Shown here: one piece after another, positions 2,953 through 11,983 of the stretch
How the letters are laid out: each line of letters starts with the position of its first letter
Position numbering within the stretch: the stretch's first letter is position 1
Source: a virus
Taxonomy: Duplodnaviria > Heunggongvirae > Uroviricota > Caudoviricetes
Virus record (IMG/VR): IMGVR_UViG_2778261690_000005
Location: 1 to 17,234 of that record
Strand: one strand, 5' to 3'
Length of the DNA stretch: 17,234 nucleotides
The notes under the pieces: model-generated
Databases searched by the model: none
What the model was told of the DNA's origin: nothing
Seen by the model: only the letters and a program-made list of their open reading frames with translations
Made by a program: the position numbers and the translations under genes

Positions 2953-3028
2953 TGGTGCTGGTTAACGGACTTGAACCGCTACCCATTCGCTTACAAGGCG
3001 ACTGCTCTACCATTGGAGCTAAACCAGC
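2953..3028 (-). tRNA. tRNA-Thr (anticodon UGU)
   Basis: Hand-folded 76-nt cloverleaf on the minus strand: 7-bp acceptor stem GCTGGTT/AACCAGC, D-stem GCTC/GAGC, anticodon loop CTTGTAA (U33, anticodon TGT, A37), T-arm AGCGG-TTCAAGT-CCGTT, discriminator A, encoded CCA. Confidence 0.7.
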
Positions 3029-3033
3029 ATGTT

Positions 3034-3108
3034 TGGCGGGACAGCGTGGGCTCGAACCACGATAAGAAGGTTAACAGCCTTCCGTAATGACCTTTATACG
3101 ACTGACCC
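3034..3108 (-). tRNA. tRNA-Asn (anticodon GUU), somewhat divergent
   Basis: Hand-folded 75-nt cloverleaf: perfect anticodon stem GAAGG/CCTTC with loop CTGTTAA, T-arm CGTGG-TTCGAGC-CCACG, encoded CCA. The acceptor stem GGGTCAG/CTGTCCC has one T-T mismatch and the D-stem is weak. Confidence 0.6.
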
Positions 3109-3164: not shown

Positions 3165-3194
3165 ATTATGGCTAAATGGATAATTGCATGTCAA
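3165..3194 (-). promoter_or_regulatory. Candidate late promoter pR' overlapping the 3' end of Q
   Basis: Minus-strand consensus -35 TTGACA (plus 3189-3194), 18-bp spacer, -10 CATAAT (plus 3165-3170). The Q stop codon lies in the spacer. Confidence 0.45.
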
Positions 3195-3690
3195 GGCTTT
3201 TAACAGCAACATGCTTAACTTTCTCAACACGTTTACGCATTTTGAAAGCATTTTGCATTGGCTGGTACAAAACAAATAACGACGCTTTCAGGATGTCGTC
3301 AATTTCGTTTCTACAGGTTGCCAGTGAAGGTTTTCTACATCCCTCGCCACCACGTCCACACATCTTGCGTGGCTTTGCAGTCGCGTGATAGTAGGATGCA
3401 ATTGCTCGCTTAGATGAACCATGAGCGTAGTAGCTGAGGAGGATGCCAAAGGCTTTCTTGTCAATGTACATGACGGAATCGACGACCTGAGAAATCAACA
3501 TTCCATCATCATCATTGCACATTGGCCTTGTCATAACTCTTCCCGGCTCTACGCTCTCCATGAACTTCGCTATTACGCTGCTCATGCGCTTTTCCAGACG
3601 ACCTGAATAAACCCATGCGCCCCACAGTTCAAGCCAGCCATTCAGCCACTCATGCTGTTCTTTGGTGAGGTTTAGTTCTCTTATGCCCAC
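3172..3690 (-). CDS. Q: Late antiterminator Q, phage 82 / QuuD type (not lambda-Q type)
   Basis: 172 aa between the nin region and the lysis genes. Motifs [29 protein letters not shown] resemble DLP12 QuuD / phage-82 Q as recalled; a Cys cluster (CGRGGEGC...C) is present. Confidence 0.75.
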
Positions 3691-6063: not shown

Positions 6064-6140
6064 GACTTCCCTCTCCCCCAAATAAAAAGGCCTGCGATTA
6101 CCAGCAGGCCTGTTATTAGCTCAGTGATGTAGATGGTCAT
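6060..6140 (-). CDS. Candidate 26-aa hydrophobic micro-protein ([26 protein letters not shown])
   Basis: Below the six-frame length cutoff. ATG overlaps the helicase stop (TGATGA), the stop overlaps the ninB ATG (ATGA), and AAGGAGGA sits 5 nt upstream of the ATG. One predicted TM helix followed by a basic tail. Confidence 0.4.
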   Translation of the reverse strand: MTIYITELITGLLVIAGLFIWGRGKS

Positions 6141-7576
6141 CAGAATCCTCCTTTCTTCTTGGACTGCGGTTCCTCGCGTTCACGTCGGCGCATTTCAGCA
6201 GACTGTTGGTCTGTGTCATAAATAGCGCCATTTGCCTGAATGCAATACACCGTGCCGGTATTGCCATGACGATTGAGACGAAGGATTAGTTCAGTTTCAC
6301 CAGGTGGAACACTGTCATCAAAAGCGCCTTCACGATGGATCCCGACCCAATAATCGCAATCCTGTTCAATCTGCCCTGTATCTCGTGAGTCACTTGGTAA
6401 TGGGCGTTTATTGGTTCTGCTTTCCAGTGCGCGGTTAAGCTGCGTCAGAAGCACAACAACGCAATCAAGCTCTTTGGCAAGGTTCTTCAGTCCTTTGGTG
6501 ATCATGCCGTAAGCAAGGTCGTTGCGATCGGCCTTCTCAGCGGTCATTAGTGTCAGGTAATCGACCAGAATCATGCCAACACATCCTTTTTCTCGCTTGA
6601 TTCGACGGCTTTCGCTGACGATTTGAGCCAGAGATAATCCCGGCGTGTCGTCGATGTAAAGCAGGTCTATTTCACTCAAGCGATTGGCTGTTTCTATCGC
6701 CCTGTTGAAGTCACCATCGTAATCACCCTGATAGCCGTCATCGGCGTCATTTGTCGCCGGAAGGTAAAAAATATTCGGGTTAACACCAGACTTCTGCCCT
6801 ACCAGTTTTTCCAGTATCTGATCACCTGGCATTTCAAGGCTGAACATCAATGCGGGCTTTTTCTCATGCACTGCGCAATTGATTGCCATCTGGCTGTATA
6901 GCGTCGTTTTCCCCATCTTAGGGCGAGCGCCAATGACAAACAGAGAGCCTTTCACCAGACCTTTCGGTGACAGCATCCTGTCCAACGATGGGATCCCTGT
7001 GCTCATTCCCCGTTGTTCTCCTGATGGGTCAAATCTCTTCTCAAGGTCGCTAACCCAGTCTTCCATGACCTCACCAAATGAACGAAGGCCGCGACGCGAT
7101 CCGGTTTTTGCATGGTCTGTCAGTTGCGTGAAAATCGACTGAATAGCTTCGTACTTCTGCGTCGCAGTCATTCCGTTGCGGGAATAGAGCAATTCCGTCG
7201 CTTCAGTCATGCGGTTGATGGCGTAGCGTTCCATTGCGGTTTCACGAACCTGCATTGCATAGGCAACGATGTTTGCTGCGCTTGGCGTGTTCTTTGCGAT
7301 CTCAGCGATATAAGCAAAACCGCCAACAGACACCGTTAACGATTTACGCTCCAGTTCATCGAAAAGCGTCAGGCCATCTACTGGCTTTTGCTCCCAGTGC
7401 ATTCTGGTTATTTCTTCGAAAAGGATTTTGTGTGGTCGGCTGTAAAATGAATCGGGCTTCAGCATCGCCAGAACTTTCTGGACGCGCTCACTGCTGTCAT
7501 CATCCAGAAGCAATCCACCAATCACCGCCTGCTCTGCCTCGATGCTATGGGGCGGCGCATAAAAATTATCGGTCAT
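6140..7576 (-). CDS. Replicative DNA helicase, DnaB family (phage-encoded, P22 gene 12-like)
   Basis: DnaB N-terminal motif (SIEAEQAVIGGLLLD), Walker A GARPKMGKT, RecA-like C-terminal domain. ATG at 7576 is preceded by GAGGGTG; the six-frame start at 7591 is GTG. Confidence 0.9.
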   Translation of the reverse strand: MTDNFYAPPHSIEAEQAVIGGLLLDDDSSERVQKVLAMLKPDSFYSRPHKILFEEITRMHWEQKPVDGLTLFDELERKSLTVSVGGFAYIAEIAKNTPSAANIVAYAMQVRETAMERYAINRMTEATELLYSRNGMTATQKYEAIQSIFTQLTDHAKTGSRRGLRSFGEVMEDWVSDLEKRFDPSGEQRGMSTGIPSLDRMLSPKGLVKGSLFVIGARPKMGKTTLYSQMAINCAVHEKKPALMFSLEMPGDQILEKLVGQKSGVNPNIFYLPATNDADDGYQGDYDGDFNRAIETANRLSEIDLLYIDDTPGLSLAQIVSESRRIKREKGCVGMILVDYLTLMTAEKADRNDLAYGMITKGLKNLAKELDCVVVLLTQLNRALESRTNKRPLPSDSRDTGQIEQDCDYWVGIHREGAFDDSVPPGETELILRLNRHGNTGTVYCIQANGAIYDTDQQSAEMRRREREEPQSKKKGGF

Positions 7577-8456
7577 CGTGTTCACCCTCACGAACTTTCA
7601 GGTAGGTATTGTCGTTAAGCAGGAAATCAAATCCCTTTTTGTGCCAGACGGTTCCGCGTTGATGGTTTGGGCGTTCTTCGAACATCCATCGGCAATTTTC
7701 GCCTACGTAGCTCAAATAATTTCTCCAGTCCTGCATCGTGAACCCATGCCCGTCAAGCTGGCGGGTTATCACTCCGGCTTTGCGCCAGAACGTTCGGATC
7801 TGGTTTTTACGCTTGTCATTCAGTGCGCGGATTCTTGGCGCTTCAGGAAGGATTTCGTGGTAAGCATCGACAACATCCTGACAGCTAACGGAAGGTTTTT
7901 TCTTGTCAGACTTTTTGTCTGCTGTGGCACTCTCTAATACGTCAGTATTAGAGATATTATTTATATTATTGTTTATGGACAACCGTTGGACAACCGTTGG
8001 ACAATCTCCGCTGAGAGCCGCGCCATTACTGGTGTTTGCGTTGGACAACCGTTGGACAACCGTTGGACAATTTTTTGCCTGAAAATCGTCATATTTAACG
8101 ATTGTAAACAGGCTAAATTTCTTCCCCATCGAGCAAATATTAAGCATCCCTTTCGACTCAAAAGTCCGTAATAAGCTCCGAACTTTGTTGTCGGGGATGA
8201 ATGTTTCTCTGACCAGCGACGGGCGTCCAGTTATCATCTGACCGCGATCAACAGTTATCGGACCGATATCCGTATTGACGACAGTAGATTCGTGATTAGC
8301 CTTGAGGATTAAGTGAAGCCAAAGATGTACTGCCTGAGAGTCCTTATAGAGCCTGCTGTCCATAAACTGGCGGTGTATAGAGACATACCCCATACTGGAT
8401 GCCTCCTGATGTTGTACAGGGTTATGCCTGTAATCAGCTAACTTAACGACGCCCAT
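7566..8456 (-). CDS. Replication initiator, lambda O / P22 gp18-like, with ori iterons inside the gene
   Basis: 296-aa ORF immediately upstream of the helicase, in the cII-proximal position of lambda O. The central part encodes the repeated peptide CPTVVQRLS twice, mirroring the DNA iterons, and an Asn/Ile-rich linker follows the AT-rich DNA segment. Confidence 0.8.
   Translation of the reverse strand: MGVVKLADYRHNPVQHQEASSMGYVSIHRQFMDSRLYKDSQAVHLWLHLILKANHESTVVNTDIGPITVDRGQMITGRPSLVRETFIPDNKVRSLLRTFESKGMLNICSMGKKFSLFTIVKYDDFQAKNCPTVVQRLSNANTSNGAALSGDCPTVVQRLSINNNINNISNTDVLESATADKKSDKKKPSVSCQDVVDAYHEILPEAPRIRALNDKRKNQIRTFWRKAGVITRQLDGHGFTMQDWRNYLSYVGENCRWMFEERPNHQRGTVWHKKGFDFLLNDNTYLKVREGEHDDR
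7946..8075. repeat. Candidate origin of replication: two clusters of three 11-bp iterons (GGACAACCGTT) plus a flanking AT-rich segment
   Basis: GGACAA cores at 7977, 7988, 7999 and at 8043, 8054, 8065 with exact 11-bp periodicity, about 34 bp between clusters, and an AT-rich stretch at 7946-7976. Architecture resembles lambda ori inside O. Confidence 0.7.
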
Positions 8457-8604
8457 GTTTCACTCCTGCTTTGGCTAGTCTGTAAACACCAACAAGGCGC
8501 TCTGCGAACGCCCTGTTATTTGCTGCGGCTACCACTAATCCCTCAGGTGAATCAGGGTGTCGAATCTCTTCTTTTTCCTGGTATTTCTTACGACGTTTTG
8601 TCAT
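8443..8604 (-). CDS. Small basic hypothetical protein (53 aa) between cII and the initiator gene
   Basis: ATG at 8604 preceded by AGGAG with a 5-nt spacer; reads MTKRRKKYQEKEEIRHPDSPEGLVVAAANNRAFAERLVGVYRLAKAGVKHGRR; 3' end overlaps the initiator start. Below the six-frame cutoff. Confidence 0.4.
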   Translation of the reverse strand: MTKRRKKYQEKEEIRHPDSPEGLVVAAANNRAFAERLVGVYRLAKAGVKHGRR

Positions 8605-8613
8605 AATTACTCC

Positions 8614-8681
8614 TGTGGATTGATCCAGTCTTTCTACATCAGGCCTCGAAGAATTCGCCGTTCTTCGGGGCTTTTTCTTTT
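8614..8681 (+). ncRNA. OOP-like antisense RNA candidate (antisense to the cII 3' end)
   Basis: Plus-strand extended -10 (TG-t-CATAAT, 8599-8607) followed about 70 nt later by a strong terminator. Position and orientation match lambda OOP RNA as recalled. The promoter call is sequence-only. Confidence 0.5.
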
Positions 8682-8917
8682 GTCAGCATTCTGGCTACTT
8701 TCTTAGCCAGTTCCGCCAACTCCTCGTCTTCAACACCCCATTCAAGAACAGCCAGAAGCATTCCCATTTTGGGGATGAAGCTATCTTTCCATCGCGAAAT
8801 TTGCGATTCATTAATCCCTAACGCGTCGGCAACCTTTCGCTGACCACGTACAGCAATTCGATTCAGGATGTTGCTTGTAATTGCATTCGCTTTCTTGCGA
8901 GTACTTGTAAGTTGCAT
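8639..8917 (-). CDS. cII: CII transcriptional activator
   Basis: 92 aa from the ATG at 8917. Motif QISRWK...IPK...MLLAVLEWGV matches lambda CII as recalled. The six-frame ORF start at 9004 would overlap nutR. Confidence 0.85.
   Translation of the reverse strand: MQLTSTRKKANAITSNILNRIAVRGQRKVADALGINESQISRWKDSFIPKMGMLLAVLEWGVEDEELAELAKKVARMLTKEKAPKNGEFFEA
8643..8681 (+). terminator. Intrinsic terminator on the plus strand inside the cII 3' end (tO-like)
   Basis: 11-bp stem (GCCTCGAAGAA 8643-8653 with TTCTTCGGGGC 8661-8671, one G-U pair, 7-nt loop) followed by TTTTTCTTTT. No T-run in the opposite orientation. Confidence 0.7.
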
Positions 8918-9025: not shown

Positions 9026-9220
9026 CTATTTGTTTTTCTTGTTGCTTGGGAAAGGACGAACTTCCTCTCCAATCACACTGCCATCAGGCTTTACCGTAAC
9101 CATGATGTTACGGCCTGCCAGAATGGCCTTGCTGATAGCGCACTGGATTACACCAAAGTCACTGGCTGCTTTAGCCTGTCCATGGATTTTGGCGTAATCG
9201 GCAAGTGTCATTCGAATCAT
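9026..9220 (-). CDS. cro: Cro repressor
   Basis: Lambda Cro-like (ITLKDYA versus MTLADYA; C-terminal [11 protein letters not shown]). ATG at 9220 is preceded by GGAGAG with a 5-nt spacer; the six-frame start at 9226 is GTG. Confidence 0.85.
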
Positions 9221-9249
9221 ATGCACTCTCCGTTATTAACCATGAACAA

Positions 9250-9326: not shown

Positions 9327-10043
9327 ATGGAAAATAAAAAATCACTGACGACAGAACAGCTAGAAGACGCTAAGCGGCTTAAGGCTTTGTATGAGTCAAA
9401 AAAGAAAGAATTGGGAATAACCCAATACTCAATCGCTGATGAACTGGGTATCACCCAAGGAGCGGTAGGGCATTATCTTAATGGCAGAAACGCGCTAAAC
9501 GTTGAGGTTGCATCTGGTTTTGCACGACTGTTGCAAGTCTCAATTGCTGATTTTAGCCAGTCAATTGCTGCCAAGGTTGCAGAACAGGCAGAAAGCCTTA
9601 AGAGCGATGCCAACGTAAGGTATGCAGGAGAATACAGAGCAGGAAAGAGGTATCCGGTGTTAAGCAGTATCCAGGCTGGCTCGTGGTGTGAAGCATGCGA
9701 ACCATACACCATTAAAGACATAGATGTTTGGCTTGAGTCTGACGCGCATATTCAAGGTAATGCGTTCTGGCTTAAAGTGGAAGGTGATTCAATGACGGCA
9801 CCGGTTGGGTTAAGCATTCCAGAGGGAACATTCGTTCTTTTCGATACCGGAAGGGAGGCGATCAACGGCAGCTTGGTCATAGCAAAACTTTCTGACTCTA
9901 ACGAAGCAACATTCAAGAAGCTGATAATCGACGGCGGAAATAAATACCTCAAGGGACTTAATCCTGCATGGCCTCTCGTGCCAATCAATGGAAACTGCAA
10001 GATTATAGGCGTTGCAATTGAGACAAAACTCAGACTGGTTTGA
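9327..10043 (+). CDS. cI: CI repressor (HTH N-domain plus S24 LexA-like autocleavage domain)
   Basis: 238 aa. N-terminus LTTEQLEDAKRLKALYESKKKELGITQ matches lambda CI ([27 protein letters not shown]) as recalled; Ala-Gly cleavage-site candidate; C-terminal GDSM...FKKLI...LNP motif. Confidence 0.9.
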   Translation: MENKKSLTTEQLEDAKRLKALYESKKKELGITQYSIADELGITQGAVGHYLNGRNALNVEVASGFARLLQVSIADFSQSIAAKVAEQAESLKSDANVRYAGEYRAGKRYPVLSSIQAGSWCEACEPYTIKDIDVWLESDAHIQGNAFWLKVEGDSMTAPVGLSIPEGTFVLFDTGREAINGSLVIAKLSDSNEATFKKLIIDGGNKYLKGLNPAWPLVPINGNCKIIGVAIETKLRLV

Positions 10044-10061: not shown

Positions 10062-10430
10062 ATGGTTGGAACCGCTATAGCAAGCTTTTTGGGGATGTTG
10101 GCAATCTCAACAATTTACGGCTTAGCGCATGCTTTTATTGCGAAATCTCTATCAGAAAAAATAAGCCAGGCTTGGGCGCATAGATCAGCTCGTTTCATGA
10201 TTCTGGTGATCATAGCAATACAAGGGATATCTGCATTTATCATCTATGGATCAAGCTTATACCTATTGTATCAAGGCGCGACATTTACGCCTTACACCAG
10301 TGATTACGGAACTCTATACGATGGTAGTGAAGACATCTCTATGGCTTGGATCGTCTTTGGTTTATCTATGGCCGTGTCTGTTGTAGCAGACATCATTAAG
10401 GTAATTCTCGTCTTAACCTTCGCTGACTAA
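10062..10430 (+). CDS. Small integral membrane protein (122 aa, about 3 TM helices) at the rex position downstream of cI
   Basis: ATG preceded by AAGGGGG with a 5-nt spacer, 19 nt after the cI stop. Three hydrophobic helices (residues about 4-26, 45-69, 95-120). No resemblance to lambda RexA or RexB as recalled. Confidence 0.6.
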   Translation: MVGTAIASFLGMLAISTIYGLAHAFIAKSLSEKISQAWAHRSARFMILVIIAIQGISAFIIYGSSLYLLYQGATFTPYTSDYGTLYDGSEDISMAWIVFGLSMAVSVVADIIKVILVLTFAD

Positions 10431-11048: not shown

Positions 11049-11348
11049 ATGACAGTAGTCATTACATATCTGGCTGACGATAACGCCAGAAATCGCCGCA
11101 GAGCACGCAGACAGGCTCAACGTGAACAGGCAATGCAAGAACAGCGATTGGCGCGAAAGATTGCGCTAAAGCTCTCTGGTTGCGTCAGAGCAGATAAAGC
11201 AGCATCACTCGGAAGCCTTCGCTGCAAGAAGGCAGAAGAAGTCGAGCGTAAACAGAACCGTATTTACTACCGCAAGCCACGCAGTGAAATGGGTGTGACT
11301 TGTGTTGGTCGCCAGAAAATGAAATTAGGCAGCAAACCACTTATTTGA
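11049..11348 (+). CDS. N: N antiterminator
   Basis: 99 aa with an N-terminal Arg-rich motif (DDNARNRRRARRQAQREQ) and a C-terminus resembling lambda N (YYRKPRSEMGVTCVGRQKMKLGSKPLI versus WYSKPGERGITCSGRQKIKGKSIPLI, from memory). RBS GGAGG with a 5-nt spacer; nutL and nutR are present. Confidence 0.85.
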   Translation: MTVVITYLADDNARNRRRARRQAQREQAMQEQRLARKIALKLSGCVRADKAASLGSLRCKKAEEVERKQNRIYYRKPRSEMGVTCVGRQKMKLGSKPLI

Positions 11349-11359
11349 GAGGAATTAAT

Positions 11360-11983
11360 ATGTCATCAATCCGCTTAACTACGAGAATGAAAGAGGAAAT
11401 CGCTCGTAACGCTTTAATTAAGTCTGGGGTTTTCACTGAACTTGAAGAAGTAACAAAGTTAAAGAACCAGCTTGCACTTGACGCCAGAGTTATTGCGTTT
11501 GGCGGGAAAAAGAAAACCGAAGAAGTGGACCAGCTGGCATCAAAGTTAATGGCTGCAAGTGAGGAACTTCAAAAGCTTGGATGTTCATTTTACTCACGCG
11601 ATGTCAGTTCAAGTTCGATTTATCTGACTGTATCTGGAAGAAGGGTTGGCTGGCATTCATACGGAAAAGACGGCAACGGTGAAGATATATTTCTCCCTAC
11701 CCCCAACAAAGATAAATGCATGTTTGACGCAGAACACAAAATAACAAAAAGGTTTGATGAAATCTGCGAATTGCAACAAAAACTTGAAGCCAGGAAAAAG
11801 GATATCGAATCAAATGTATGGGCTGCTTTGAACTCAGTCACAACAGTTAAGCGACTTATTGAGGTCTGGCCTGAAAGCAAAGAGTTGCTACCAAAAGAAG
11901 CAGATAAAGCAAGTGCAGCACTTCCTGCTTTACGGGTAGAAGATTTGAATAAGATGATTGGACTTCCTTCCGAGGCCGCATAG
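11360..11983 (+). CDS. Hypothetical protein (207 aa), first gene after N; function unknown
   Basis: ATG at 11360 preceded by GAGAGGAA, 12 nt after the N stop; stop codon embedded in a terminator hairpin. Predicted soluble, charged, partly coiled-coil. The six-frame start at 11300 overlaps N and is a likely over-extension. Confidence 0.65.
   Translation: MSSIRLTTRMKEEIARNALIKSGVFTELEEVTKLKNQLALDARVIAFGGKKKTEEVDQLASKLMAASEELQKLGCSFYSRDVSSSSIYLTVSGRRVGWHSYGKDGNGEDIFLPTPNKDKCMFDAEHKITKRFDEICELQQKLEARKKDIESNVWAALNSVTTVKRLIEVWPESKELLPKEADKASAALPALRVEDLNKMIGLPSEAA

Follow-up and report, generated by a model that had tools for sequence, protein, structure and literature searches.

The stretch of DNA analysed here (17,234 nt, called the window below) carries, with a probability of about 0.88, an oop gene from a lambdoid prophage, of the short form found in phages P22, Sf6 and BTP1, which would be an orthologue of the lambda OOP RNA acting as it does in lambda. 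Judged by its sequence, the copy in the window is a homologue of lambda pO-oop and goes beyond a mere look-alike, and by analogy with the studied phages we infer that it would be transcribed and would lower the expression of cII. The OOP RNA has been known since the 1970s. Knowledge of the short P22 form dates from 1984 (Backhaus and Petri 1984, as given in PMC13397905), and the cII-oop-orf-O-P layout together with a 33-bp conserved block was published in 2012 (Hayes et al. 2012, PMC3349717). The oop gene described here is thus of a known kind, with the element, the short form and the layout all on record in the literature. As a discovery, this copy matters little; its practical point is a gap in annotation, which a covariance model of the kind built here could close, and in this prophage oop is a marker of a complete lysis-lysogeny control region.

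The window represents, in reverse, the early region of a mosaic prophage of the lambdoid group, with its genes in the lambda order (Table 1). Any one phage record covers about half of it at most, and the best ones are Sf6, IME10 and mEpX2, at about 97%. OOP lies antisense to the 3′ end of cII, with the replication genes of the early right operon on its other side. The final cII codons read ...LTKEKAPKNGEFFEA*, and OOP covers the last 42 nt of the gene; by construction, the RNA is fully complementary to these 42 nt and to the 24-nt spacer that comes after cII, which makes 66 nt altogether. Within cII, the hairpin of the terminator tO falls in the last 11 codons and the hairpin plus T-run in the last 14 or so, where the T-run encodes the residues K-E-K of CII. 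The 53-aa ORF between cII and the O-like gene, for which the Pfam search gave no match, contains the -35 region of the promoter pO and shares its start codon with the pO -10. Moreover, the 5′ end of OOP abuts the ribosome-binding site of this ORF, and the CTCCT at 8610-8614 is the complement of AGGAG. The iteron clusters inside the O-like gene are presumably the replication origin; a promoter scan called them as promoters, which was a mistaken call. Just downstream of the gene for the Q antiterminator, tRNA-Thr(tgt) and tRNA-Asn(gtt) genes were found at 2953-3108 and 3165-3194, both on the minus strand, and both come after TTGACA-18-CATAAT, probably the late promoter pR′, which ranks best among the sigma-70-like sites of the window.

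Table 1. Position and strand of oop, its signals and the neighbouring genes in the window
Feature	Position	Strand	Remarks
Gene for Q antiterminator	3172-3690	-	
DnaB-like helicase gene	6140-7591	-	Pfam match
O-like initiator gene	7566-8456	-	No Pfam match; named from homologous phage records
Iterons TGGACAACCGT, two clusters of three 11-bp copies	7976-8008 and 8042-8074		Inside the O-like gene
NinG gene		-	
53-aa ORF between cII and the O-like gene	8443-8604	-	Homologue of HK97 gene 53 and Sf6 gene 42
Candidate -35 of pO, TGGTAT	8579-8584	+	17-bp spacer; weak against TTGACA; in position equal to the TGGTCA annotated in P22
33-bp pO/oop block TTTGTCATAATTACTCCTGTGGATTGATCCAGT	8597-8629	+	Common to lambdoid phages; 30/33 identical to lambda
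Extended -10 of pO, TG-T-CATAAT	8599-8607	+	CAT at 8602-8604 complements the start ATG of the 53-aa ORF (minus strand)
LexA-box-like palindrome TCCTGTGGATTGATCCAGTC, CTG-N10-CAG	8611-8630		CTG-CAG at 8613-8628; spans the transcription start; degenerate in the window
Predicted OOP RNA, about 66 nt	8615-8680	+	Covariance model match 8615-8682 (+), 99.1 bits
5′ stem-loop of OOP	8615-8637	+	Stem 8615-8619 with 8633-8637
cII gene, 92 aa	8639-8917	-	ATG at 8917, TGA at 8639-8641; Pfam Phage_CII 1-91 of 91, E = 1.8e-42
Intrinsic terminator tO	8641-8681	+	Hairpin 8641-8673 and U-run 8674-8681
cro	9026-9226	-	Pfam Cro
CI-type repressor gene	9327-10043	+	Pfam HTH_3 and Peptidase_S24

A functional sigma-70 promoter pO is predicted at the locus, with a conserved -10 and TG and a weak -35. 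The extended -10 that the sequence-only reading had pointed out on the plus strand is present to the letter, with TG at 8599-8600 and CATAAT at 8602-8607, and both parts are retained in lambda, P22, BTP1 and most of the diverged copies described below. The -35 is poor, matching the consensus at two to three of six positions, and it may also be read as CTGGTA at 18 bp; for this reason, pO is missing from the sites called when the whole window was scanned for promoters with a generic consensus. The motif TGNCATAAT on its own occurs twice in the window against 0.8 expected, no more rarely than by chance, and was set aside as evidence. Because of the weak -35, the missing scan call and the chance frequency of the motif, the case for the promoter is built on homology. 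In alignment with lambda, the 33-bp block corresponds to the -10 of lambda pO together with the initial 15 nt of OOP; the reverse complement of 8597-8629 is the lambdoid consensus ACTGGATCaATCcACAGGAGTaATTATGaCAAA given in PMC3349717, and the Sf6 record has an annotated ‘boundary sequence’ (bsq5) that overlaps the block. It was also observed that CCTGGTA, CCTGGTC or CCTGGAA stands at the position of the pO -35 (8578-8584 in the window) in three small ORFs that follow cII and are unrelated to one another. This forces Tyr/Phe-Gln at codons 8-9 of each small ORF, and so the promoter seems, from these sequences, to constrain the protein of the ORF that overlaps it.

Homology with the 5′ pppG of lambda OOP sets the 5′ end of the predicted RNA at G8615, since the alignment with the lambda block (30/33) gives a homologous start at this position, and its 3′ end is placed near 8680 from the 3′ end of the P22 RNA obtained by RNA-seq (...GGCUUUUCUUU). 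The 5′ stem shows compensatory changes among the copies, such as GUGGA/UCUAC, GUGAA/UUCGC and GUAUG/CAUAC. About 35 nt downstream of the -10 begins the tO hairpin, made of AGGCCTCGAAGAAT, the loop TCGCC and GTTCTTCGGGGCTT, and followed by the T-run TTTCTTTT up to 8681 (in summary form, UUUUUCUUUU). A strong plus-strand terminator inside the last codons of the minus-strand cII gene had been proposed from the letters, and its position and its T-run stand. A consensus scan ranks tO first among the terminator-like sites of the window; the stem has 14 pairs when G·U is counted (three G·U and six G-C), instead of the 11 that had been claimed. The fold of the 70-nt RNA reaches -27.7 kcal/mol, where 200 dinucleotide shuffles gave -14.4 ± 2.5 and none was as good (z = -5.4), and z is -4.8 for the tO hairpin alone. 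The two strands differ here in two ways. A U-run follows the hairpin on the plus strand only and is lacking on the cII strand, so that transcription from pR would not be terminated at this place. In addition, G·U pairs of the hairpin turn into A·C mismatches on the cII mRNA strand, and for this reason 12 of 15 variants have a hairpin that is 2-9 kcal/mol more stable on the OOP strand. A plus-strand ORF with a GTG start (8557-8706, 49 aa) spans promoter, RNA and terminator; it is without support and was rejected as a by-product of the antisense frame.

The likeness to the lambda OOP RNA, which had been noticed from the letters, proves to be homology, with 30/33 identity to the lambda block and with relatives in P22 and BTP1 whose RNA has been detected. 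The 77-nt OOP of lambda (pO-oop-tO) occupies the same place in the same orientation, being antisense, lying between a cII-like gene and the replication genes and ending inside cII. The stretch in which lambda and the window agree at 30 of 33 positions comprises the promoter and the 5′ block, including TGT-CATAAT and a start G within CTCCTG-; in either case the start codon of the following gene is overlapped by the -10, and each has two stem-loops with an intrinsic terminator, as well as CTG-N10-CAG as a palindrome at the start. The RNA of the window, with its length of about 66 nt, falls about 11 nt short of that of lambda, owing to a 5-bp stem that takes the place of the long first stem-loop (AUCCAG.../...CUGGAU). 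Moreover, the sequence of the terminator hairpin is unrelated to that of lambda, the overlap with cII is 42 nt against 55 nt, the gene under the promoter is the 53-aa ORF where lambda has O, and the -35 is TGGTAT against TTGAGT, that of the window being the weaker. Since the long first stem-loop is absent and the overlap with cII is 42 instead of 55 nt, the RNase III sites of lambda are not transferable to the window. The short-form (class-B) covariance model located the OOP of lambda correctly, though with a weak score (16.5 bits, E 0.12).

The closest described relatives are those of the short form. The oop of P22 was recovered as a 63-nt RNA by RNA-seq, as reported in PMC13397905, and its first 30 nt are equal to 8618-8647 of the window; the first 33 nt of the predicted RNA and the U-run with the tail are identical in the two. 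The P22 record OQ031658 annotates an ‘oop promoter’ and an ‘oop terminator’ at the homologous place. P22 has the same short architecture, opposite a C1/CII gene of the same family and with a small ORF after it. The upper stem and the loop of the terminator are different (CAAAACUGUUCCCGCAGUCUUG against CGAAGAAUUCGCCGUUCUUCG) with the pairing retained, and consequently the tail of CII is PQDCGNSFEA in P22 and APKNGEFFEA in the window. The upstream ORF of P22 is of the orf48/hkaW type, and its -35 region is therefore different (TGGTCA). On the model R1, which was built without P22-type sequences, P22 oop scored 69.4 bits (E about 1e-14). In the Salmonella phage BTP1, OOP(BTP1) was detected in the lysogen transcriptome, according to Owen et al. 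2020 (PMC7067206); the supplements of this paper were searched for the coordinates of the transcript and did not yield them. The body of the BTP1 RNA is that predicted for the window except for G8617 to U, with the same terminator and the same position opposite cII, while the -35 context is of the P22 type and there is a further change just before the start (ACCCC for ACTCC). Because the upstream context differs in this way (the 53-aa ORF in one case, an ORF of the orf48/hkaW type in the other), the transcript evidence from P22 and BTP1 bears on the RNA body and the -10 but not on the -35 of the window. Sf6, HK620, mEpX2, mEp213, IME10 and E. coli prophages are 98-100% identical to the window over 8590-8690, and no RNA is annotated at the homologous place in their records. 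Sf6, HK620, ES18 and P22 are among the phages for which PMC3349717 reports the cII-oop-orf-O-P layout. The records of Sf6, HK620, ES18 and lambda (NC_001416/J02459) hold no oop feature, P22 being the only one with such a feature among the records checked. Furthermore, roughly a sixth of the complete genomes of E. coli (965 of 5426) match the window at 8560-8700, where among the matches listed the annotated features are only genes of the cII family and for hypothetical proteins. Rfam 15 gave nothing relevant in the window at gathering or at permissive thresholds, and its weak matches, ctRNA_p42d and sX13 (E 0.14 and 0.23), were rejected as generic terminator resemblance. As controls, lambda, P22 and BTP1 gave no OOP match either; thus there is no OOP family in Rfam 15, and membership cannot be tested with it. 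The lack of a curated RNA family is the reason why OOP goes unlabelled in genome annotations.

When viral contigs were scanned with the conserved block, 124 copies proved usable; 29 different RNAs occur among them, all with the 5′ hairpin and the terminator. They fall into two classes, lambda-like RNAs of 77-82 nt and P22-like RNAs of 67 nt, and the commonest RNA is exactly that of the window (29 of the 124 copies). Diverged copies were sought via the cII protein, independently of the DNA block pattern; an alignment of four proteins gave 12 loci, several of them lambda contamination. Copies found in this way come from seven other enterobacterial genera, namely Rahnella, Enterobacter, Tatumella, Yersinia, Dryocola, Pantoea and Lonsdalea. 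On the antisense strand, these copies have CATAAT or TATAAT over the start codon of the next gene and a -35-like hexamer at 16-18 bp, then the 5′ hairpin, and then a hairpin with a U-run inside the end of cII. As for the contamination, the contigs of Pseudoxanthomonas kalamensis (L135, 1286 bp, coverage 1.4) and Bradyrhizobium sp. (L138, 754 bp) match lambda cII-oop-O over the stretch compared and are most likely lambda DNA in the assemblies; L139 (Enterococcus) and L140 (Colwellia) look similar to these two.

All of the 14 short-form variants share one fold. A covariance model built from six short-form sequences had one match in the window and scored about 69 bits on the P22-type copies. RNAalifold on a MAFFT alignment of the diverged copies predicted no pairs, the 3′ arms being out of register, and this alignment was replaced by one made with the covariance model. 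In the latter, with 16 distinct short-form RNAs, 89% of the cells pair against 28-54% with slid partners, as read from an alignment that is fitted to the structure and so favours pairing; in the same structure-fitted alignment, 9 of the 18 pairs change on both sides, and none of 500 shuffles reaches the covariation score. The residues of CII encoded by the hairpin vary while the pairing holds (APKNGEFFEA, PQDCGNSFEA, APGCLEHFEA, APSCSNSIDA and others). The kept pairing, the asymmetry between the strands and the variable CII residues together speak for selection on the plus-strand RNA, as against the protein or the mRNA.

On the lambda model, the element would work as follows. From G8615, pO would read against the early rightward operon and stop at tO inside the last codons of cII, giving a predicted RNA of about 66 nt with two stem-loops. 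This RNA would pair with the pR transcript (the cII-O mRNA), the duplex would be cut in an RNase III-dependent manner, and the cII mRNA would be lost, leaving less CII, so that the phage would lean toward lytic growth. Besides, the firing of pO against pR would, as has been shown for lambda, tune the amount of rightward transcription that arrives at the origin inside the O-like gene. In lambda, the OOP/cII duplex leads to RNase III-dependent decay of cII mRNA (Krinke and Wulff, as cited in PMC7067206, PMC2327240 and PMC5869508; further sources on the mechanism are PMC3985674 and PMC12197685), and after SOS induction the role of OOP is described as minor (PMC2327240). An RNase III-dependent lowering of cII by the OOP of the window is inferred by analogy, this being known for lambda only. 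It is also conceivable, if rather doubtful, that the promoter is what matters and the RNA is a by-product, with collision or interference between pO and pR setting the transcription that reaches the iterons and with the terminator sparing pRE and cI. In lambda, a mutation of the pO -10 is reported to increase read-through from pR and to impair replication, and a change in the level of oop RNA has no such effect (PMC3985674); the layout in the window is the same as in lambda, with pO about 530-630 bp from the iterons (7976-8074). However, the 5′ hairpin and the terminator stem keep their pairing by compensatory changes across genera, which points to selection on the RNA itself, and lambda OOP supplied in trans suppresses the activities of CII, as stated in PMC5869508. 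The promoter-only role and the antisense role can coexist.

Similarly tentative, and in our view unlikely, is the idea that pO is under SOS control, with LexA bound to the CTG-N10-CAG at the start, so that OOP would rise only after DNA damage and aid the lysis of the induced prophage. PMC5869508 cites a LexA-binding sequence that lies in lambda oop-pO, and eight of the nine distinct copies found via the cII protein, hence independently of this motif, keep CTG and CAG ten bases apart around a variable centre; the copy of Rahnella rivi (L129) even has a perfect CTGT-N8-ACAG at the start site, with TATAAT as the -10. On an approximate position weight matrix made from SOS boxes, lambda scored 15.6 bits and Rahnella 17.2. 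Against this, the box of the window scored 10.4 bits, less than the 13.0 of the weakest training box, and in 60% of shuffled windows the best site was at least as good; the ribosome-binding site of the opposite strand also puts a constraint on CTCCTG, and according to PMC2327240 the activity of CII was not restored after UV in pO and oop mutants of lambda. Since the matrix did not lift the box of the window above chance, we leave SOS control as a minor hypothesis.

The first 15 nt of OOP (GUnGAUnGAUCCAGU) are kept across the lambda-type and P22-type RNAs and across genera, though the pairing partner differs or is missing. Another observation concerns the last 16-20 codons of cII (8639-8690 of the window, minus strand; loci L004, L022, L039, L045, L116 and others), which travel with the type of oop and apart from the remaining cII: the tail TNKKRPAATERSEQIQMEF is found on CII bodies of both the lambda type and the 933W type, TKEKAPKNGEFFEA on two different bodies, and in one contig a P22-type N-terminus of CII is joined to a lambda C-terminus. 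With the tail moving together with the oop type, the proteolysis tail of CII, oop and pO look like one mosaic cassette. Whether the short OOP does more than antisense control of cII, its conserved 5′ segment being an SOS operator and/or a seed for a second target, is a matter on which we lean clearly toward no; as second targets, the mRNA of the downstream ORF and the O-like gene or a host RNA could be considered. If it were true, one portable cassette would set the stability of CII, the decay of cII mRNA and the output of the replication genes together.

It is highly improbable that the conservation comes from the needs of the minus strand alone (ribosome-binding site and start of the 53-aa ORF, coding of the CII tail and perhaps a protective hairpin at the cII mRNA's 3′ end) with the plus-strand signals being incidental, for although CTCCT at 8610-8614 complements AGGAG, the CAT is the start codon of the ORF, the T-run encodes K-E-K and the tail of CII is a known proteolysis signal in lambda (a statement in PMC3349717), the amino acids of CII under the hairpin vary with the pairing kept, the hairpin is weakened on the mRNA strand by the change of G·U to A·C, the U-run belongs to the plus strand only, and plus-strand RNAs with such ends have been sequenced in P22 and seen in BTP1.

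On the repressor side of the control region, two further ORFs were noted. A hydrophobic ORF of 122 aa (10062-10430, plus strand) stands directly after the repressor gene and is a possible lysogen-expressed accessory gene, and the ORF at 11300-11983 (plus strand) contains a full-length Nmad5 (nucleotide modification associated) domain with an E of 8e-70.
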